Positions 734-30,110 of a stretch of 32,000 nt of DNA are shown one piece after another. Both the position numbers and the translations under genes were made by a program. The notes under the pieces are model-generated. The model worked only from the letters and a program-made list of their open reading frames with translations, searched no databases and was not told the DNA's origin. This stretch comes from an archaeon GW2011_AR10 (lineage in GTDB: Archaea > Iainarchaeota > Iainarchaeia > Iainarchaeales > GW2011-AR10): positions 1,170,001 to 1,202,000 of the forward strand of contig CP010424.1 in assembly GCA_000830275.1 (NCBI GenBank), in the 5' to 3' direction. How positions within the stretch are numbered: position 1 is the stretch's first letter; each line of letters starts with the position of its first letter.

Positions 734-826
734 TATAGCAGGCGACATTAATTTTTGAACATTTATTGTCGCCTGATAGATAGCAAATGACCTTGTTTTG
801 TTCAAATATTTTTGTCATTTGCTATA
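734..826. repeat. Family-1 hairpin modules, cluster A (2 modules)
   Basis: Module 1 (734-780): TATAGCAGGCGACA, 19-nt loop, TGTCGCCTGATAGA. Module 2 (781-826): TAGCAAATGAC, 22-nt loop, GTCATTTGCTATA. Loops carry TTGAACA / TGTTCAA. Confidence 0.85.
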
Positions 827-1262: not shown

Positions 1263-1517
1263 CTATGGCGAATGACATTAATAATTAAACATTTATTGCT
1301 CATTTGCTATATGTAAAAGACAATATATTTTGCCATATGTAAAAGACAATTATTTTCCAAACAAGAATGTCTTTTACTATATTATATTAAGCTTATCAAT
1401 ATTATACTGTTTTGGTTTTATATTTATAGCAAAACGCTTAAGTAATTGAACATTGAATTGCGTTTTGCATCTAGCAACCAGCAGCATAAAGTTCAAAAAT
1501 ATAAGCTGTTTGCTATA
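1263..1517. repeat. Family-1 hairpin modules, cluster B (about 4 modules)
   Basis: Modules at about 1263-1311, 1336-1381 (GTAAAAGACAAT / ATGTCTTTTAC), 1425-1470 (GCAAAACGC / GCGTTTTGC) and 1472-1517 (GCAACCAGC / GCTGTTTGC). Positions 1425-1517 nearly duplicate 6621-6713. Confidence 0.85.
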
Positions 1518-6230: not shown

Positions 6231-6356
6231 CTGCTTTAGAGGCGGGGCATAACAAGGAAAGCAAGCTTTTTTTGCTCTGAATGGCCTCGTTTTTCTGGTT
6301 TTAACACTGTTTTTTTCATATTTTATGGGGCACTTTATATAAATAAGGCCATTTAT

Positions 6357-6436
6357 CAGCCTTTTAGGAAAAGGCTGGCGAAAAAAAGCCTACGGCAACA
6401 GCCTTTTAAAAAAAGCCCGTCGAAAATGCGCCTTCT
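6357..6436. repeat. Family-2 short-hairpin concatemer, copy I
   Basis: CAGCCTTTT-AGG-AAAAGGCTG, then GCC-TAC-GGC, then a second AGCCTTTTAAAAAAAGC unit. A TATA-like CTTTATATAAATAA lies at 6333-6346 just upstream. Confidence 0.75.
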
Positions 6437-6541
6437 GCTGGTTGTTTCTGGTTTCTCTCGCTTCTCTCGTCCCTTAGCTGGTTTTTCCTTCAATAAGCCG
6501 AATTCAAACAGTTAATTCCACTGTTTTTAAGCAGTGCGACG

Positions 6542-6826
6542 CTATAGTATATGGCAAAATGCTTTTGTGTTTGAACAAATAGCGAATGACTTTAATAATG
6601 GTAAAAAGCAAGTCATTCGCTATAGCAAAACGCTTAAGTAATTGAACATTGAATTGCGTTTTGCATCTAGCAAACAGCAGTATACAGTTCAAAAATATTG
6701 GCTGTTTGCTATAGTCGCAAAAGACATTAAGAAATTACCGAAACTAATGTCTTTTGCTAAAAAAATTGCATTTTGCATTTAGCAAACAGCAAATTAAATT
6801 TTCAAGAATCAAAGCTGTTTGCTATA
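6542..6826. repeat. Family-1 composite element, copy C (about 285 bp, 6-7 modules)
   Basis: Modules at 6580-6624 (GCGAATGAC/GTCATTCGC), 6621-6666 (GCAAAACGC/GCGTTTTGC), 6668-6713 (GCAAACAGC/GCTGTTTGC), 6714-6759 (GCAAAAGACAT/ATGTCTTTTGC) and 6780-6826 (GCAAACAGC/GCTGTTTGC), plus half-modules. Nearly identical to 26007-26283. Confidence 0.9.
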
Positions 6827-8185: not shown

Positions 8186-8859
8186 CCTTGAATCGTTATC
8201 TGCTTGCTGGTTTGATTACTCTCGCAATATTGGGGGTTGTTTTTGGGGCGGTCCTGCTTTTAGATGACTGGCGGGTTTCAGGCATAAACAAAGACCTTGA
8301 AGATTTGAGCATTCAATCAGAGTCCAACAGAGTGCTTTTCTTTTATAACCAAGTTTTTGATCCCGCCGAAAACCCGCGGTTCTGTGAACTAGCCAACTCG
8401 AGCGCTACTCTCCGCTCCAACCAAGGAGACCTGCTTTTTGCAAAACTCGAAAACTATGAAGGCGCCAGTTTCTTTGGCAGTTACAGAATTCTGCGGCAAA
8501 AATACCTGCTTAACCGCATTGAACTGTGGCTTTTTACAACGCTTCAAAACAAAACCTGTGGAAGCAATTTTGTGCCGGTCTTGTTTTTTTATGAATCTAC
8601 TGTTGATTGCCCGGAATGTTTAGTGCAGGGAAACATTTTGGAAGAGCTCCGAAACCAATGCCCAAATGTAAAGATTTTTGCTTTGTCCGTAGATGAAGAA
8701 ATAGATTTAGTGCCTTTAATTCAGTCCCAGTTCAATGTTTCGACTGTTCCTTCCTTGGTTGTGGACAACCAATTTGTTTTTGAATCCTTAACCACTAAAG
8801 AAGAAATCTTAAGAAATATTAAATGTGAAGAAGTCATAGCGAAACGAATAGTTGTTTGA
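8179..8859 (+). CDS. Membrane-anchored thioredoxin-fold protein (CPEC motif)
   Basis: 226 aa. N-terminal TM LLAGLITLAILGVVFGAVLLL. VLFFYESTVDCPECLVQ...STVPSLVV matches a CxxC thioredoxin/glutaredoxin-like layout. Overlaps the GT2 stop by 7 nt. Confidence 0.55.
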   Translation: MVTLNRYLLAGLITLAILGVVFGAVLLLDDWRVSGINKDLEDLSIQSESNRVLFFYNQVFDPAENPRFCELANSSATLRSNQGDLLFAKLENYEGASFFGSYRILRQKYLLNRIELWLFTTLQNKTCGSNFVPVLFFYESTVDCPECLVQGNILEELRNQCPNVKIFALSVDEEIDLVPLIQSQFNVSTVPSLVVDNQFVFESLTTKEEILRNIKCEEVIAKRIVV

Positions 8860-8864
8860 CAAAT

Positions 8865-9005
8865 GGCGTTTTGCAACCAGCCAATAAAAGTTCAAGAATT
8901 AAAGCTGTTCGCTATATAGTAAAAGACATAAGTATTTACACAATAATTGTCTTTTACATATAGCAAGCGACAATAAATGTCTAAATATTAATGTCGCTCG
9001 CTATA
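8865..9005. repeat. Family-1 hairpin modules, cluster D (about 3 modules)
   Basis: Half-module GGCGTTTTGCAAC, then ...GCTGTTCGCTATA, then TAGTAAAAGACAT/GTCTTTTACATATA (8917-8962), then GCAAGCGACA/TGTCGCTCGC (8961-9005). Lies between convergent genes. Confidence 0.85.
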
Positions 9006-14666: not shown

Positions 14667-14758
14667 TATAGCAAAATGCTTGTGTGTTTGAACAAAAACT
14701 GCATTTTGCAACTAGCAAACAGCAAATTAATGCTCAAAAATCAAAGCTGTTTGCTGTA
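14667..14758. repeat. Family-1 hairpin modules, cluster E (2 modules)
   Basis: TATAGCAAAATGC/GCATTTTGCAAC (14667-14712) and TAGCAAACAGC/GCTGTTTGCTGTA (14713-14758). Lies immediately upstream of rpl10e. Confidence 0.85.
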
Positions 14759-14805
14759 GAGCAATCCTATAATACTCTTCAATTGCAATCATTTTTAAGG
14801 CTTTA

Positions 14806-15007
14806 GGTAAACCTTTTAGGAAAAGGTTTGCGAAAAAGTGCCTTCGGCCAAAACCTTTTAAGAAAAGGTTTATCAAAATGGGGCTGCGCCGAAAACCTTT
14901 TTAGAAACCCAAGCAAAATCATAGATTTTGCGGGCCTCGCAAAACCAAGGGTTTTGCAAGGAGTTTTATCAAAAAGTGCCTTCGGCTGAAAACTTTTAGG
15001 AAAACTT
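14806..15007. repeat. Family-2 short-hairpin concatemer, copy J (longest copy)
   Basis: Consecutive hairpins AAACCTTTT-AGG-AAAAGGTTT, GCC-TTC-GGC, AACCTTTT-AAG-AAAAGGTT, GGC-TGC-GCC, GCAAAATC-ATA-GATTTTGC, GCAAAACC-AAG-GGTTTTGC and GCC-TTC-GGC. Positions 14895-14995 align with 18775-18870. Confidence 0.85.
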
Positions 15008-16706: not shown

Positions 16707-16904
16707 TATAGCAAAATGCTTAAGTAATTGAACATTGAATTGCGTTTTGCATCTAGCAAACAGCAGTATACAGTTCAAAAATATTGGCTGTTTGCTATAG
16801 TCGCAAAAGACATTAAGAAATTACCAAAAATAATGTCTTTTGCTAAAAAAATTGCATTTTGCAACCAGCAAATTAATGCTCAAAAATCAAAGCTGTTTGC
16901 TGTA
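16707..16904. repeat. Family-1 composite element, copy F (deletion variant of C and G)
   Basis: Same module order as 6621-6826, with only a couple of substitutions over ~150 bp. It lacks the GCGAATGAC module. Its first module is a chimera (5' arm GCAAAATGC, 3' arm GCGTTTTGC). Confidence 0.9.
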
Positions 16905-16944
16905 GGTAAAAAGGTTTGCGTTGCATTTGGCTGCAAACGAAGAG

Positions 16945-17101
16945 AGCTGAGGATGGGAGTCGAACCCATCTCTTCCGCTTACAGCAACCAAAAGCTGCAA
17001 AAGACAGCTTTCTTTTGCTTTCTTTTGCTTTCTTTTGTAAACTTTTCTTTTCTAAAGAAAAGTTTCTGCAGGCGGATGCATGGCCGATCTGCCACCCCAG
17101 C
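16945..17101 (-). tRNA. tRNA-Cys (anticodon GCA) with an 86-nt intron at the canonical 37/38 position
   Basis: Hand-folded on the minus strand. Acceptor GCTGGGG/CCTCAGC (one G-U). D arm GCA-GATCGGCCA-TGC. Anticodon stem TCCGC/GCGGA with loop CTGCAGA. 4-nt variable loop. T arm ATGGG-TTCGACT-CCCAT. Discriminator T, no encoded CCA. Exons are 17066-17101 and 16945-16979; the intron is 16980-17065. Confidence 0.85.
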
Positions 17102-17215
17102 GAAACGGTAACCTCCGTTTACAAGGTGTGCCATTTTCAATGGCACTGGCTCGGCTCTTGGAGCCTCGCAACGGCTGGAACTTCAGCCGGCAAAGGTACC
17201 ATTAATCATTTTTGC
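17102..17215. other. Run of five consecutive perfect hairpins between tRNA-Cys and the ThiI-like gene (function unknown)
   Basis: AAACGG/CCGTTT (17103-17120), GTGCCAT/ATGGCAC (17128-17146), GGCTC/GAGCC (17153-17165), CGGCTG/CAGCCG (17172-17189), GGCAAA/TTTGCC (17189-17215). Confidence 0.5.
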
Positions 17216-17271
17216 CAGAAAACTTATTTAAGGGTACTATTGCTTTCTGAAGAGCTATTTTAACGGTTTTG

Positions 17272-18192: not shown

Positions 18193-18980
18193 TTAAAGGC
18201 GTTGTGTTTGATTTGGATGGCGTTATAGTCAACACTCCGGACATTTACTTTAAGACAATGAAGGAATATATTAGGGGGCACTCAGTCAAAGTAAAGGATG
18301 AGGATGTGTCCAAGCTAATTGGCTACTCGTTGAGGGACGAGCTAATGCTGATAAACCAGAAATATGGCCTCAATATTGAACTCTCTGAATTTGTTTCAGT
18401 TGTTCTCTCCAAGTCAAGGAAACTGATGGAAAAAGAGATGAAGGTCAATGATGGTTTTACTGAACTGCTTTCAGAACTGAAGGAAAACCGCTTCAAAACA
18501 GCTGTTGCCTCAAACAATGTTCCTTCAACAATTGATTTCATTCTGTCAAAGTACGGTTTCCTTGAGTCATTTGATGCAATTGTTGGAGCCGACGATGTGA
18601 AGCATGGAAAGCCCAGCCCTGAAATATACATTAAAGCAGTTGAAAAGTTGGGTTTGAAGAAAGAGGAGTGCATCGCAATTGAGGACACTTTAATAGGGTT
18701 AAAGGCAGTCAGTGCAGCTGGCCTTAAATGCATTGCTTTTCCAAACAAGTTCACTAACGGCCAAAACCTTTTAAGCAAACCCAAGCAAAATCATGGATTT
18801 TGCGGGTCTCGCAAAACCAAAGGTTTTGCAAGGAGGTTTGCGAAAAGTGGCCTTCGGCTAAAACCAAAGGTTTTACGAGGAGGTTTGCGAAAACGCAGCT
18901 CCGCCAAAAACCTTTTCGGAGCAGTTTTAACAATCGGGAGCCTCACTGAATTGAATTCAGGGGTAATAAGGGGGCTTTAA
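18189..18980 (+). CDS. HAD-superfamily hydrolase (beta-phosphoglucomutase/phosphatase-like, subfamily IA) carrying an in-frame repeat insertion near the C-terminus
   Basis: VVFDLDGVIVNT (motif I), VASNN (II), KHGKPSPEIY (III), IAIEDTLIGLKAVSAAG (IV). TTG start overlaps the upstream stop (TTGA). Residues ~193-240 are encoded by the family-2 repeat. Confidence 0.8.
   Translation: MIKGVVFDLDGVIVNTPDIYFKTMKEYIRGHSVKVKDEDVSKLIGYSLRDELMLINQKYGLNIELSEFVSVVLSKSRKLMEKEMKVNDGFTELLSELKENRFKTAVASNNVPSTIDFILSKYGFLESFDAIVGADDVKHGKPSPEIYIKAVEKLGLKKEECIAIEDTLIGLKAVSAAGLKCIAFPNKFTNGQNLLSKPKQNHGFCGSRKTKGFARRFAKSGLRLKPKVLRGGLRKRSSAKNLFGAVLTIGSLTELNSGVIRGL
18761..18916 (+). mobile_element. Family-2 repeat copy K inserted in frame within the HAD hydrolase CDS
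   Basis: Bounded by near-identical direct repeats CCAAAACCTTTT (18761-18772) and CCAAAAACCTTTT (18904-18916), whose ends are 144 bp apart. The interior aligns with intergenic copy J (GCAAAATCATGGATTTTGC, GCAAAACCAAAGGTTTTGC, GGCCTTCGGCT). Confidence 0.7.
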
Positions 18981-20207
18981 ATGAGGGTGGCGATTTTTTC
19001 TGACACTCACCTTGGCTTCAAAGCGTTTGGGCGAGAGCAAGAAAGCTTTGAGAATGCGGAGCAGGCATTTGGCATAGCGTTGGATAATAAAGCAGACGTA
19101 ATCCTGATTGCGGGCGACATATTCAATGAAGTAACTCCCTCAACCGATGTGCTGGTTGGTGCCTTTCAGCTGTTCAGCAAAGCGAAGACAAGCAAAAAGG
19201 ACATAAAAATAGGGGTTTCCTCGAAAAAGCAAGTGATAGAGGAAATAGTTGCAGGAATTCCAATAATCTTAATTCACGGAAACCACGAATTCAGGGGAAA
19301 AGACTACACTAACGTGCTGCACCTTTACAGCAAATCCGGTTTCGCTTTCTACCTTCACGCTGAAACAGCTGTGCTGGAAAAAGGAAACGAAAAGCTTGCA
19401 GTGCATGCTTTAGGCGGGGTGCCAGAGCAAAAAGCGCTGGATGCGCTAAAGCTTTGGAATCCAAAGCCAGTGGAAAGCGCAGTGAACATTCTCCTATTGC
19501 ACCAGAATTTCAAGGAGTTTTCCCCGGTTGAAGACGAAATGGTTGCAACCCTTTCCTTGGATGATTTGCCAAATGGCTTTGACTTGATTGCTTCAGGGCA
19601 TCTTCATTGGACGGTAAAGCAAAAGCTCGGCAAAACAACTTTTTTGCTTGCAGGAAGCACAATCTGCACGCAGATGAAGAAAGTAGAGCAGGAAAACAGG
19701 AAAGGCGTTCACTTGTTTGAAACTCAAGCAAAAACCATTGAATTCATTCCTTTGCCTGTGCAGAGAAACCTTTTCTACCATAAAATAAGCTTTGAAGAGG
19801 CCAAGCCAGAGCAAGTAATCCACAAAATTCATGAGGCAATAGAGAAAGACTTAAAAGAAGGAAATGCCTTGCCCCCGCTTATAAGGCTGAAACTGGTTGG
19901 CAACCTGTCCAAGGGCATTTCGCTTTCAGATATTGACTTAAAGGCTGTTGAGGAAAAATTTCGGGGAAAAGCCATTATGTCTGTTTCGAAGGAGTTTTCA
20001 ACAACCGCTTTCAAGAAAAAAATTGCGGAACTCAGGCAAATACAGCAGTCAAAGCAGTCAATTTCTTCAATTGGCTTAAGCATTCTTGAAAAAAACCTGA
20101 AGGAAACCGATTTCAATGACGCATTTGAAGTGAAGAGAATATTTGACTTGCTTGCAGAAGACGAAACAGACAAAGTCTCTGAAATTCTTTCAAGAAGGAA
20201 AAAATAA
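18981..20207 (+). CDS. mre11: DNA double-strand break repair nuclease Mre11
   Basis: Calcineurin-like phosphoesterase motifs: FSDTHLG, AGDIFN, IHGNHE, SGHLH. 408 aa. ATG immediately follows the HAD stop. Confidence 0.85.
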   Translation: MRVAIFSDTHLGFKAFGREQESFENAEQAFGIALDNKADVILIAGDIFNEVTPSTDVLVGAFQLFSKAKTSKKDIKIGVSSKKQVIEEIVAGIPIILIHGNHEFRGKDYTNVLHLYSKSGFAFYLHAETAVLEKGNEKLAVHALGGVPEQKALDALKLWNPKPVESAVNILLLHQNFKEFSPVEDEMVATLSLDDLPNGFDLIASGHLHWTVKQKLGKTTFLLAGSTICTQMKKVEQENRKGVHLFETQAKTIEFIPLPVQRNLFYHKISFEEAKPEQVIHKIHEAIEKDLKEGNALPPLIRLKLVGNLSKGISLSDIDLKAVEEKFRGKAIMSVSKEFSTTAFKKKIAELRQIQQSKQSISSIGLSILEKNLKETDFNDAFEVKRIFDLLAEDETDKVSEILSRRKK

Positions 20208-25133: not shown

Positions 25134-25167
25134 TATATATATTATAATAATATATATAATATATAAA
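25134..25167 (-). promoter_or_regulatory. Pure (TA)-rich tract, candidate TATA/promoter region for the KH gene
   Basis: TATATATATTATAATAATATATATAATATATAAA lies 20-55 nt upstream of ATG 25113 (minus strand), with SD GAGGT in between. Confidence 0.4.
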
Positions 25168-25182: not shown

Positions 25183-25956
25183 TCACTTCTTTTTCTTGGT
25201 TTCTTTTCCTTTTGCTTTAACCGCCCCGTAAACTTCTTCAAACGACTTCCGTAATCCCTTTTTCGAGTAAAAATCCGCCACATTTTTCACATCCCGTTCA
25301 AAGAATTCCCTTGCACTAGGATGGGTTCTCAGCACTGCCTGGCCCAAGTCAATGAATACAAGCTCGTTATCGTTTACAAGAGCATTGTATTCTGAGAGGT
25401 CCGCGTGAACAATGCCAGCGCCATAAAACATTCTCGCCATAAACTCAATTGTCTGCAGGTAAAAGCCTTCAAGCTGTTCAATGCTCTCCACCTTAAAGTC
25501 TTTCAGCCTCGGAGCAGCTTTCCCATTACTTCCAATGAACTCCATTACAAGTGCGTTATCCTTGAAGCCAAGAGGCAATGGCACCCTTGCCTTTGCTTCT
25601 GATGCGAGCACTAAGTTCTTGTACTCTTTTCTCACCCACGCATAAACAATGCTGCGCTTGTCAGAGCCAATGCTTTTGAACCTTCTGTCCCCAACAATGT
25701 ATTTTTGCATGTTCCTGAAGTCAGAGGTTTCAATCTTGTAGAGCTTTACTGCCCTGTAATTTCCGGAAACATCAGTTGCCCTGAACACGTGCGCTTCCTT
25801 GCCGGTTGAAACAACAAATTCAAGCAAATCAAACAGGCCGCGCGTTGCAAGCACATGGATTGCCATGACCGCGTTCGCGTCAAATACCTGCGCAAAAATC
25901 TTTCTATCCTTCTCTTCACTAATGTAGTTTTTGAGTGTTTCAATTTCCCTCTTCAT
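25183..25956 (-). CDS. rio1: RIO-type serine/threonine kinase/ATPase, Rio1 class
   Basis: STGKEAHVF, AVKLYK, IVHADLSEYN and IDLGQAV motifs. No N-terminal wHTH, so Rio1 rather than Rio2. Confidence 0.85.
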   Translation of the reverse strand: MKREIETLKNYISEEKDRKIFAQVFDANAVMAIHVLATRGLFDLLEFVVSTGKEAHVFRATDVSGNYRAVKLYKIETSDFRNMQKYIVGDRRFKSIGSDKRSIVYAWVRKEYKNLVLASEAKARVPLPLGFKDNALVMEFIGSNGKAAPRLKDFKVESIEQLEGFYLQTIEFMARMFYGAGIVHADLSEYNALVNDNELVFIDLGQAVLRTHPSAREFFERDVKNVADFYSKKGLRKSFEEVYGAVKAKGKETKKKK

Positions 25957-26006: not shown

Positions 26007-26283
26007 TATAGCAAAACGCTTATGTATTTGAACAAATAGCGAATGACTTTAATAATGGTAGAAAACAAGTCATTCGCTATAGCAAAACGCTTAAGTAATT
26101 GAACATTGAAACTGCGTTTTGCATCTAGCAAACAGCAGTATAAAGTTCAAAAATATTGGCTGTTTGCTATAGTCGCAAAAGACATTAAGAAATTACCAAA
26201 ACTAATGTCTTTTGCTAAAAAACTGCATTGCAACCAGCAACAGCAAATTAAATTGTCAAAAAAAATTAAAGCTGTCTGCTGTA
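26007..26283. repeat. Family-1 composite element, copy G (about 277 bp)
   Basis: Collinear with 6542-6826. By eye there are only about half a dozen differences over the central ~190 bp. Lies between the aIF1A stop and the rio1 start. Confidence 0.9.
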
Positions 26284-26293
26284 GAACTAATGC

Positions 26294-26629
26294 TCATAGT
26301 GGCAGCTTGTTGAGGAAGCCTTTCTTTTTCAAGTGCTCTGCCTGAACGCCAGTGTAGCGCCAGATTATGTCTGCCTTGATTGGCTGGAAATCCCAGAGCC
26401 TTACAATTACTATGTCTCTTTCCCGTATCCAGACGCGCTTCTTGATTTTGCCTGGAATCCTGCACATTCTTTCAATGCCGTCCTCGCACGAGACCTTTAT
26501 CTGGTCGCCGCCGAATAGTTGCAGCACAACGCCAAACAATTCCAGGTTTTCTTTTCTTGGCAGTTTCGCCCGCCTTATTTCTTCCTGTTTTTTCTGTTCC
26601 TCTTTTTCAAGTTCTTTCTTTGAAGACAG
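26294..26629 (-). CDS. eif1a: Translation initiation factor aIF1A (S1-like OB fold); 5' limit uncertain
   Basis: FGVVLQLFGGDQIKVSCEDGIERMCRIPGKIKKRVWIRERDIVIVRLWDF...DIIWRY is canonical aIF1A. The track starts at TTG 26539, but the in-frame upstream 30 codons (…EEIRRAKLPRKENLE) also look like the family N-terminus and are open back to the TAA at 26630-26632. Confidence 0.8.
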   Translation of the reverse strand: MSSKKELEKEEQKKQEEIRRAKLPRKENLELFGVVLQLFGGDQIKVSCEDGIERMCRIPGKIKKRVWIRERDIVIVRLWDFQPIKADIIWRYTGVQAEHLKKKGFLNKLPL

Positions 26630-28087: not shown

Positions 28088-28467
28088 AGCGCTGTTGAAT
28101 GCTGTTGCATGATTCACAGAAACAATCAGCTAAAAACTGGCGGCATCAGTTCTTAGCATCCTCATCATCCTTGCGTCATCAGGTGTTAACCTCATTAATG
28201 TTTGAATTTTGGTGGGTTATGACACCCGCTTTAACCCCTGTTCCGGCCTCCATTTTGTAAATAGAATATAAATAATTCACATTAAAATTGTTGCTCTCAC
28301 GTTCAAGAACGAAGCAAAACACGGCACGGAACAAAGGCAAGAATAAGCCAAAAGCTCTTTACCTGGCAGAATTTATCTTTATAAAGAAATTATCTTTTCT
28401 TGTTGAATTGTATAAAGTTTTATTAAACCTATTCTTGTAAGATAATTAATCTGGAGGGTTGTTATTT

Positions 28468-28605
28468 ATGTGGGGGATAAAATCAAAGAAAGGTTTTGCT
28501 TTTGCATTTTACGCTTTCTTTGTTTCAAGTATCTTTTTTATAACAAAAAATAAATTAAAAAAGACCAAGCCAGAAAAAATATTTACGGCCAGTTCTTTGA
28601 GTTGA
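28468..28605 (+). CDS. Possible 45-aa single-TM peptide
   Basis: ATG 8 nt after GGAGGG. MWGIKSKKGFAFAFYAFFVSSIFFITKNKLKKTKPEKIFTASSLS. Below the ORF-track size cutoff. Confidence 0.3.
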   Translation: MWGIKSKKGFAFAFYAFFVSSIFFITKNKLKKTKPEKIFTASSLS

Positions 28606-28611
28606 TTTCAA

Positions 28612-29028
28612 ATGTTTGTGAAAAAAGAACAATTTATTGCTGTGTTTTTGGTGGTTTTTGCAGTTGCTTTATTGTTTCTTAGTGGTTGTTTGGAAAAGAC
28701 TTGTTTTAACCGTGCTGACTGTCCTTTAAGCGATTCCGAGTACATTCAAATCGCAAAAACAACTTCGGAAGCACAAGCATTCCTGCAAAAATATCCTGAT
28801 GCAAACATTGGGGTTGAGAGAACTGAATACTTGGCAGTTGACTTTATAAAAAATAAGTCAGGTGAAAGCACTATTGTTCCACCTTACTTGCGATTAAGAG
28901 TTTTTATAAACACTTCAACGAACAAGCCAGCGTCAGCTTTCATAGAATGTAACCTCACGGGTGACAACTATTCAAGAATAGACCAAGACATTGTTAATTA
29001 CATAAAAATAGAAAAATGTTTAGCATGA
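28612..29028 (+). CDS. Putative lipoprotein (hypothetical)
   Basis: Signal peptide with lipobox: FLVVFAVALLFLSGC. 138 aa. No family recognised. Confidence 0.5.
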   Translation: MFVKKEQFIAVFLVVFAVALLFLSGCLEKTCFNRADCPLSDSEYIQIAKTTSEAQAFLQKYPDANIGVERTEYLAVDFIKNKSGESTIVPPYLRLRVFINTSTNKPASAFIECNLTGDNYSRIDQDIVNYIKIEKCLA

Positions 29029-29509
29029 ACTAGCTCCCTTTCTTTTTCTTTTTTTTCTAATTTTTTGCCGAAATAAAAAAATTATTCAGAGGGAATCAGA
29101 GTTGAGTTAAATCATCATTCCCGTTGAGGGGTCAGAAGGTCTTAACTTCATCCCGCGCCTTCCTAATACTCTGTTTTTGAATGTGTTTAAAACCCTTTTT
29201 TTGGTCACTCGGAAGTGAGGCTTGTTTTTCAGTTCTCCATCAATTCTGCATTGTCCGGATTCTCGGGCGCAGACAAATATTTCAGGTAAGCCGTGATTTT
29301 TGAGTTCTAAAAGGATCTGTTTTGCGTATGTTTATTTCAAATAGTTCACATAAAGAAAGCGGGTTTTTCCAATTAGCCGGTTTTTTTGGAATTGGTGTCA
29401 TCGCCCTCCACTTTTCAGACTATAACCTCATCATCGTCTGCAGTAATTTATAGAGATTATTGCTTTAATTCTTTGCTTTTTTTTATATTCTGTTAAAGTG
29501 GTTTTTCAT

Positions 29510-29679
29510 ATGGGTAAAGAAAAAAATGGAAAGTTGTTATTTCAGAGAATGTTGTAAAGAAGATGGAAATGCTGCCTGAAAAAGACCAGAAAAAACTAAT
29601 GAATGCAATGGAAAAACTAGCTGAAAACCCTTATGCCGGCAAATCATCAAACAATTTAAATGGTTACGCTATAACGTAA
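29510..29679 (+). pseudogene. RelE/ParE-type toxin remnant (frameshifted in an A-run and C-terminally truncated)
   Basis: ATG GGT AAA G-A8 shifts frame into WKVVISENVVKKMEMLPEKDQKKLMNAMEKLAENPYAGKSSNNLNGYAIT*. This resembles the first half of RelE/ParE toxins and stops before the conserved C-terminal catalytic half. A TATA-like TTTTTTTTATATT lies upstream. Confidence 0.45.
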
Positions 29680-30110
29680 CCCTATTTAAATGCTTAAAAA
29701 GGGTTTGACTGGGTTAAGGCTAACAAAAGGCAGCGTAAATGTTAGTCTAAATCTTTGTGCTGGTTAGGCTGATAAGTGGCAATAACTTCCTTAGCCTAAC
29801 TGTCTGCCCAAACTTTCGAAAACTTTTTTCTTTTTCGGACAAGCCGCTTAATTTTGCATTACTACTCTTTTCTTTGCTCTAAAGCCAAATAGTTTGTATA
29901 AAATCCAAATTTCTTCCTATGGCAACGCTCAAAATACTGGTGCTAACAACTACGCTTTTTGCGAGGATGACCTCATAATCGCCTACTGTGATGTATAAGG
30001 ATTATTCCTTAAAATTAACGGTTTTTTGCAGAGAGCAACGTTCACCTAATCCAAGTAAAATTTATAATCTGGTAGCGCCTTTTATTCTTAAAATGAAAGG
30101 AGGTGAAATT

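Follow-up and report, generated by a model that had tools for sequence, protein, structure and literature searches.

The spacer between the archaeal aIF1A and rio1 genes holds a composite of small non-coding hairpin repeats whose units recur at other loci of the 32,000-nt stretch of DNA analysed here (the window). We read the region as a mosaic of such repeats, an archaeal counterpart of REP/REPIN/BIME or MITE-like elements and neither a gene nor a single transposon, and put the probability of this reading at roughly 55%. On this best reading, the repeats form a REPIN/BIME- or MITE-like non-autonomous family that is new for DPANN archaea. Judged by comparison of the copies, the near-identity of the composites appears to belong to a nested block of ~181 bp, lodged in a hairpin loop of an older pair of repeats, and not to the composite as a whole. 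DPANN genomes are very small and gene-dense, yet this family takes up about a quarter of the window's intergenic DNA; it offers a handle on how non-coding DNA arises and spreads in reduced archaeal genomes, and bears on whether REPIN-like long-lived elements exist outside bacteria and on what supplies promoters and terminators in reduced archaea.

The initial annotation had described a ~280-bp composite of six modules at 26007–26283, with further copies at 6542–6826, 16707–16904 and 1425–1517, and alignment upholds much of that description. The copies at 6542–6826 and 26007–26283 are collinear as claimed, with 255 of 281 columns identical (90.7%; 18 substitutions, 8 gap columns). That at 16707–16904 is indeed the composite minus one hairpin and matches the 6542 copy at 190 of 206 columns (92.2%), while 1425–1517, said to duplicate two of the modules, is 93.5–94.6% identical to the three composites over 93–94 nt. 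Differences counted by eye (about half a dozen between the 6542 and 26007 copies, about two in the 16707 copy) agree with those in the central three hairpins (~142 nt), where the three composites differ by 3–4 substitutions and 0–1 indel (96.5–97.9% identity). The outer ends form the imperfect inverted repeat that had been noticed, TATAGCAAAAYGC ... GCTGTYTGCTRTA, and matches to PF01176 and PF01163 confirm the placement between aIF1A and rio1.

Perfect hairpins with a stem of at least 10 bp and a loop of 10–30 nt number 14 in the window, compared to a mean of 1.25 and a maximum of 4 in 20 dinucleotide shuffles of it, and the folding of the composite departs from that of shuffles with z = −7.8 (RNA, + strand), −6.5 (RNA, − strand) and −7.4 (DNA). 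The aIF1A–rio1 copy is identical in five independent assemblies (L001–L004 and L009), which rules out an assembly artefact. Together, these results exclude chance and confirm that the repeat composite is real.

The unit of the family is a module of ~46–49 nt that forms a hairpin. Oriented by their loop motif, the modules follow a single consensus, TATAGCAAAnnGC-TTAwATnTTTGAACAwwwAwTT-GCnnTTTGCTAkAT, with a conserved head (TATAGC), a covarying stem of 9–14 bp and a conserved AT-rich loop centred on TTGAAC. The stem classes ACGC, ATGC, CAGC, TGAC, AGACA and GCGACA coexist in the one genome. Covariation of the 11-bp module stem is strong: in 24 seed modules, 92% of the stem cells are paired and compensatory double changes occur at 7 of 11 pairs, stem pairing values that none of 500 shuffles reached, with slid controls only 28–53% paired. 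In an alignment of 45 unique modules the head reads TATAG, rarely TACAG, GATAG or TATGG, and in none of them GTAG. Stem mismatches in 45 distinct modules, read in the sense of the model, comprise nine G.T or T.G and one A.C (p = 0.02, the copies not being independent), a bias which suggests that pairing of one strand matters, either in RNA or in single-stranded DNA.

We built a covariance model from the seed modules and ran it on the window without filters. It returned ~25 modules, all within seven intergenic clusters (734–826, 1264–1517, 6550–6826, 8835–9005, 14667–14758, 16707–16904 and 26007–26283); one weak match overlaps the last 25 nt of an ORF, and the clusters are otherwise intergenic. 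The modules span 1,246 bp, corresponding to 3.9% of the window and 23% of its intergenic DNA, and the probability of all seven clusters falling in the intergenic 16.7% of the window is ~4 × 10−6. The spacers that hold them are divergent, co-directional and convergent alike. The recurring building block, found as nine pairs in the window, is a tail-to-tail (+,−) pair of ~93 bp with its TATAGC heads pointing outward and with TATAGCAAAAYGC and GCTGTTTGCTATA as terminal inverted repeats, and by the covariance-model matches both the order and the number of modules differ at every locus. TA is always present on both sides of a pair, yet it is part of the palindrome TATAGC...GCTATA, and because the module ends are palindromic in this way a TA duplication is indistinguishable from them; the check for target-site duplications gave no unambiguous one.

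Such strongly covarying stems around conserved loops, together with very stable predicted folds, wobble pairs favoured in one sense and the retention of the family in several species, could also mark structured small-RNA genes, whose multi-hairpin transcripts or processed hairpins would base-pair or bind protein through their loops. We consider this improbable, as Rfam 15 has no match over the whole window at gathering thresholds or at E ≤ 1, the two strands fold equally well, and the modules of a pair are opposed, so that any transcript has one of them in antisense. Moreover, loops flip between copies with no other change, the module content is different at each locus, no dedicated promoter or terminator is evident, and so many copies in 32 kb, at such a share of the intergenic DNA, would be untypical of RNA genes. 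A CRISPR array was rejected, since the units are inverted repeats that enclose conserved loops, their junctions vary and whole units recur elsewhere. Default ARAGORN finds no tRNA in the window, and weak tRNA-like calls inside the repeats, made at very low thresholds, were disregarded.

The junction of adjacent modules, TTYGCTATAGCRAA, is a palindrome, and its boxes recur every ~45–48 bp. If a dimeric regulator or chromatin protein bound duplex DNA at palindromic TTTGCTA-TAGCAAA junction boxes ~46 bp apart, and so wrapped or organised the intergenic DNA, such a pattern would result, but we give this reading very little credence. The junction spacing varies, with GCTATAGC, GCATCTAGC and GCTATAGTCGC all found, and neither the covariation of the variable inner 4–6 stem positions, which lie ~20 nt apart, nor the strand-biased G.T mismatches would be explained; varying spacing and covarying inner stems led us to reject the junction-palindrome operator model.

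Table 1. Coordinates of the composite, its parts, related clusters and flanking genes in the window.
Feature	Position	Strand	Remarks
Host A-type module, 5′ arm and proximal loop (TATAGCAAAACGC TTATGTATTTGAACAA)	26007–26035	+	broken just after TTTGAACAA; 24/29 versus the 5′ half of intact 14667–14712
Nested ~181-bp block of four hairpins	26036–26217	+	imperfect inverted-repeat ends TAGCGAATGAC / GTCTTTTGCTA
Block hairpin, stem ATAGCGAATGACTT	26036–26080		perfect stem; covariance-model match 26034–26081 (−)
Block hairpin, stem GCAAAACGC	26082–26122		perfect stem; covariance-model match 26078–26125 (+)
Block hairpin, stem TAGCAAACAGC	26126–26169		perfect stem; covariance-model match 26123–26171 (−)
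Block hairpin, stem GCAAAAGACATTA	26175–26215		perfect stem; covariance-model match 26175–26217 (−)
A-run, then degenerate host A 3′ arm (CTGCA--TTGCAAC)	26218–26234	+	aligns to AAAAACTGCATTTTGCAAC of 14694–14712 and to 6759–6777
Host B-type module, stem CAGCAACAGC/GCTGTCTGCTG	26232–26283	−	one stem mismatch; covariance-model E = 4 × 10−4
Second full composite	6550–6826	+	host 5′ half 6550–6578, block 6579–6758, host 3′ arm and B module 6759–6826
Third composite	16707–16904	+	without host loop and GCGAATGAC hairpin; block portion 16720–16844
'Empty' host pair	14667–14758	+	intact A module (stem GCAAAATGC) and B module (stem TAGCAAACAGC), no nested block
Cluster of four modules, between divergent genes	1264–1517	+	1425–1517 is the ACGC(+)/CAGC(−) pair alone
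Pair, stem CAGGCGACA (+) and stem ATAGCAAATGAC (−)	734–826	+	also at two further loci in the species
Three to four modules filling a convergent-gene spacer (unknown ORF / TruD)	8835–9005	+	
aIF1A, flanks the composite	26294–26539	−	PF01176, E = 4.8 × 10−22
RIO1 kinase, start codon ~50 bp from the left end of the composite	25183–25956	−	PF01163, E = 4.4 × 10−57

Of the six collinear modules proposed, the first is only the 5′ half of a hairpin, with the 3′ arm ~190 bp downstream (Table 1). Between these arms lies the nested block, whose ends match at 9 of 11 positions and whose hairpins follow the order TGAC, ACGC, CAGC, AGAC in both 6550–6826 and 26007–26283. Among the three loci that carry it (26036–26217, 6579–6758 and 16720–16844) the block is 96.0–98.4% identical, whereas the host parts reach 86% in the 5′ half and 75–81% in the 3′ part, a contrast with a Fisher p of ~1 × 10−5 for each pair of copies. 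The description 'almost identical' therefore holds for the inner ~181 bp and does not extend to the outer parts. This identity step and the existence of the empty pair at 14667–14758 argue for the copying of a discrete nested unit, so that the dispersed copying of non-coding DNA proposed in the initial annotation stands, with a unit smaller than the whole ~280-bp composite.

The empty pair, 34 bp upstream of the gene for ribosomal protein L10e (minus strand), differs from the host part of 16707–16904 by one substitution and a 7-nt deletion, and filled and empty versions of one host subtype thus coexist. The flanks of the nested block are A-runs (AAA on one side and AAAA to AAAAAA on the other), compared to AAAAA in the empty pair. 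The 71 bp missing from the 16707 copy correspond exactly to the interval from the host 5′ arm to the 5′ arm of the ACGC module, both of which are TATAGCAAAAYGC, and the hybrid 5′ arm left behind, GCAAAATGC, forms a stem with GCGTTTTGC that includes a U.G wobble; recombination or slippage between direct TATAGCAAAAYGC arms would have this outcome. A 123-aa ORF and an intron-containing tRNA-Ser gene converge on this copy from its two sides. The likely ATG (6866) of a GT2 glycosyltransferase gene follows 40 bp after the second composite, and the segment 6474–6727, which includes part of that composite, matches contig L038 at 96.9%.

Other pairs, too, recur with sharp ends in unrelated flanks, in line with the copying claim. 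The CAGGCGACA/ATAGCAAATGAC pair (GGCGACA/AATGAC) is found in the window at 734–826, in L007 at 1480–1573 and in L048 at 19257–19347, with identical ends and a first module that is 100% identical at all three loci; a 7-bp TATTAAT repeat flanks one of the three copies. The loop of the second module in L007 (1524–1573) is the reverse complement of that in the window (778–826), one substitution aside. In chloroplast non-coding DNA, minute loop inversions leave the spacer between short inverted repeats in both orientations with the arms unchanged. The loop flip seen here resembles them, although the chloroplast inversions are a mutational phenomenon without an element family and the archaeal flip is between paralogous copies.

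Two contig segments from different samples, L007 7900–8340 and L038 1–470, have a common left flank (on the side of a Ham1-like gene) and permuted modules in the order TGAC-like, AAAGACA, CAGC, ACGC, TGAC, while their right flanks differ (rio1 in L007, the 6474–6547 flank in L038). They point to at least one additional composite locus in this species and to either a chimeric assembly or recombination among copies. L007, where the rio1-side composite is joined to different upstream genes, was rejected as proof of rearrangement, given the further locus and a probable assembly chimera. The repeats break or scramble metagenome assemblies of the species: several assemblies break off inside the composite, one (a GenBank MAG) has an NN gap there and one is a probable chimera.

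The window is identical to contigs of the metagenome-assembled genome GCA_013332025.1 and to several groundwater metagenome contigs. The closest named homologues of its RIO1 belong to Candidatus Diapherotrites (Iainarchaeia, DPANN); matches form a same-species cluster at 99%, and the next is only 66% identical. Four strains with 99.5–99.8% identity have the same module content in clusters 1–4, without a presence/absence change in these four clusters, and point differences amount to 6 in 804 bp of the clusters compared to ~0.6% in genes. Assemblies that extend across the rio1 or the 16707 copy all have it unaltered, and no empty orthologous site was seen among the strains and the spanning assemblies, where filled and empty host pairs are paralogous only. 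The initial annotation had called the copying recent and proposed comparing strains for presence/absence; at this scale recency is not borne out, as the comparison revealed neither gain nor loss and a divergence like that of genes. A 145-bp shorter aIF1A–rio1 spacer in GCA_013332025.1 (L005) was rejected as an empty site because it contains an NN scaffold gap.

The same population varies in an intein. The MJ0043_C-like gene at 1–717, which runs off the left end of the window, has no intein within the window or in L044 and L046 (423 aa), while in L045 and L047 it carries one (Intein_splicing and LAGLIDADG, 870 aa), a presence/absence polymorphism within a population of 99.5–99.8% identity. Contig L048 is 99.96% identical to the window genome over 13.4 kb and then continues into other genes (GARS, ferric reductase, RNase HII and ZPR1); its breakpoint relative to L049, at ~28164 in the 28088–28610 spacer, has no module of this family and reflects either a structural variant or an assembly join.

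Beyond the species, the nearest relatives (RIO1 66% and 59% identical) keep the order aIF2beta-DUF424-aIF1A...RIO1-KH-TopoVI; in both, other genes separate aIF1A from RIO1, and the syntenic region of 20 kb contains no modules. At the junction of the two genes, one relative (L011, 8874–9945) has a nucleotidyltransferase gene (NTP_transf_2/Polbeta) and a 235-aa ORF on the opposite strand, and another (L012, 9352–9951) a 199-aa ORF; insertions at this junction seem to recur within the clade.

In a pattern scan, the CAGC module with the same GTTCAAAAAT loop, usually joined to the same partner, was also located in an uncultured archaeon (GC 0.30), in several metagenome contigs with 81–95% identity over the pair, and in a MAG of Candidatus Iainarchaeum from Lac Pavin with two near-identical copies (GC 0.50 for the loci and 0.24–0.27 for the element). 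The same tail-to-tail pair occurs in L019, L021, L025, L032 and L035, and loops are conserved between species, with 81–86% identity over the pair. Thus, the module family is common to several Iainarchaeia and not private to the source genome; these have genome GC contents of 0.30–0.50, and the GC content of the element stays at 0.24–0.31. Other contigs hold a sister family with a shared TAGCAA...TTGCTA stem base and different loops. The neighbours of the modules in other species are also housekeeping genes, such as those for aCPSF1/FttA, ribose-5-phosphate isomerase and a DHH phosphoesterase. Viral contigs gave no match to the CAGC-module pattern; four phage-contig matches to a degenerate junction pattern (57–64% GC) were rejected as unrelated repeats, as were eight bacterial matches in the genome-collection scan, which are long terminator-like hairpins with an 11-mer in common by chance.

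Several known systems share parts of this architecture. Among the traits that make the family behave like REP/REPIN/BIME or MITE-like elements are its sharp boundaries within unrelated sequence, its nested copies and its patchy occurrence across lineages. BIMEs assemble palindromes into higher-order clusters and mosaics, as does the module family. Like REP and REPIN sequences, the modules are short extragenic palindromes whose stems covary and tolerate G.T pairs (PMC3116915, PMC3733652). In REP sequences one end of the palindrome bears a conserved tetranucleotide, GTAG or CGTC (PMC3733652), whereas the archaeal modules lack this 5′ tag and start with TATAG or TACAG. Further likenesses are the inverted pairing (head-to-head or tail-to-tail dimers, including heterodimers with different stems; nine doublets here) and the strictly intergenic location in many copies, with proposed roles in mRNA stability or termination. 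In contrast to most REP loops, of 2–5 nt, those of the modules measure 17–24 nt and are conserved in sequence around a TTGAAC core; they occur in a DPANN archaeon, a nested block occupies a hairpin loop, and no RAYT gene was found in ~75 kb of the species.

Correia elements of Neisseria and other prokaryotic MITEs with TA duplication are non-autonomous, ~100–150 bp long and bounded by TATAG-starting inverted repeats with TA flanks; Correia elements lie between genes and close to them, their ends can make outward promoters and their transcripts form hairpins, and no cognate transposase is known for them. The archaeal units resemble them in length, non-autonomy, TATAG-starting terminal inverted repeats with TA flanks and intergenic location near genes, but are unrelated in sequence and are themselves hairpins with conserved loops, arranged in nested and permuted mosaics. 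As in MITEs, terminal inverted repeats bound both the pairs and the nested block; presence/absence polymorphism at orthologous sites was not found. BOX elements of Streptococcus pneumoniae are intergenic composites of boxA, boxB and boxC in variable number and order with stable predicted folds. The archaeal clusters likewise combine few module types in variable number and order in intergenic DNA and are predicted to fold stably, but BOX modules are not individually perfect hairpins with one consensus, and the two have no sequence relation. A search of the literature on such repeats in Diapherotrites or Iainarchaeota gave nothing relevant.

The proteins of the window and the ~75 kb of the species examined yielded no transposase, RAYT-like (Y1/HUH) protein or recombinase; a search of window ORFs without a Pfam match at E ≤ 1 gave no transposase, and none was found beside the modules at the loci of other species. 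We assign the repeats to no named family because the GTAG/CGTC tag is absent and no RAYT or transposase, unambiguous target duplication or orthologous empty site was found.

Comparison of the paralogues suggests how the composite may have formed. The four-hairpin block would have entered an older pair, in the loop of its first hairpin just after TTTGAACAA. Three diverged host pairs now carry the block at this one position, either through site-specific insertion or because gene conversion between host pairs may have spread it. The 16707 copy would later have lost its 71 bp through recombination between the two direct 5′ arms. The units would be mobilised in trans by an enzyme encoded elsewhere in the genome, probably as single-stranded hairpins. 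Hairpin formation may also drive loop inversions and deletions, as the exact loop flip between paralogous copies and the 71-bp deletion between direct arms suggest. The earlier inference of transposition or gene conversion survives as copying, recast as a nested block within older pairs that is fixed in the species.

Once fixed, inserted units might be used by the host as promoter or terminator signals or as 3′ RNA hairpins, a supply suggested by TTTGCTATA heads 17–51 bp from start codons and by loop tracts of T5–T8 that face incoming transcription. As a hypothesis, the conserved loops and the positions of heads and T-tracts are compatible with co-option of mobile DNA.

The same observations lend themselves to a reading in which the modules are host cis-regulatory cassettes from the outset (portable promoters, terminators or insulators, or hairpins of 3′ or 5′ untranslated regions), maintained by selection and spread by recombination or gene conversion, with the heads as TATA-like boxes for outgoing genes and U-tract hairpins that stop or stabilise incoming transcripts. 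Cluster ends lie 17–51 bp from the start codons of six genes, and the divergent pair around 1264–1517 has essentially no other DNA for two promoters. T5–T8 tracts in B-type modules face transcription after aIF1A (26232–26283 on the minus strand, with a loop T8 tract 11 bp downstream of the stop codon) and after tRNA-Ser (16856–16904). Loops are conserved across species, the element stays AT-rich within a genome of 50% GC, the bias of G.T over A.C suits base-pairing in transcripts that enter the module, and strain divergence is no higher in clusters than in genes. Loops conserved between species together with covarying stems look like the signature of a functional structured element and not of junk DNA, which counts against our preferred reading.

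We nevertheless regard regulatory cassettes as an unlikely origin. The distance from head to start codon varies, from 17 to 70 nt when other species are included; TTTGCTATA is unlike the TTTATATA-type boxes upstream of other genes in the window; and up to six consecutive hairpins are more than a terminator or promoter would require. T5 tracts are missing from the loops of A-type modules, so a uniform bidirectional terminator was rejected. The nearest relatives have the same gene junctions without modules, and the sharp step in identity between block and host suits insertion better than conversion. Regulatory use is also compatible with a mosaic of mobile hairpin repeats, since mobile elements can be co-opted.

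Combining both aspects, we offer as a speculative extension, to be held only tentatively, that Iainarchaeia may carry an undescribed REPIN-like system. An enzyme for processing hairpins or single-stranded DNA would move the TTGAAC-loop units and also favour them as targets, by nested insertion directed to the loop. Fixed units would in addition serve as intergenic cassettes, with outward TATA-like heads and U-tract hairpins that terminate or stabilise transcripts.

The genes around the composite and elsewhere in the window are housekeeping genes: aIF1A and the RIO1 kinase gene are followed by those for a KH-domain protein and then topoisomerase VI, and the remainder encode an S-layer protein, TruD, aRF1, L10e, diphthamide synthase, a THUMP protein and others. 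A perfect AT-only palindrome at 25136–25165 (TATATATTAT...ATAATATATA), 23–52 bp upstream of the KH-domain gene, is probably the TATA region of that gene.

The tRNA-Ser(GCU) gene at 16944–17101 (−), detected by ARAGORN only with introns allowed, ends 40 bp from the third composite and has an 86-nt intron with three tandem AAAGAAAGC units; just upstream of it, at ~17101–17230 on the minus strand, is a GC-rich, strongly structured stretch. The region 28088–29985 is gene-poor and low in GC (0.355), with one or two short ORFs and no modules of the family described here. A second, unrelated repeat family consists of units of ~42–47 nt with two short hairpins, AAACCTTTT-AGG-AAAAGGTTT and GCC-TTCG-GC (cUUCGg-like). 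Its tandem arrays lie close downstream of genes, at 2189–2267, 6344–6438, 14796–14997 and 18760–18958; two of the arrays lie at most ~110 bp from clusters of the first family, and one overlaps the 3′ end of a HAD hydrolase ORF.
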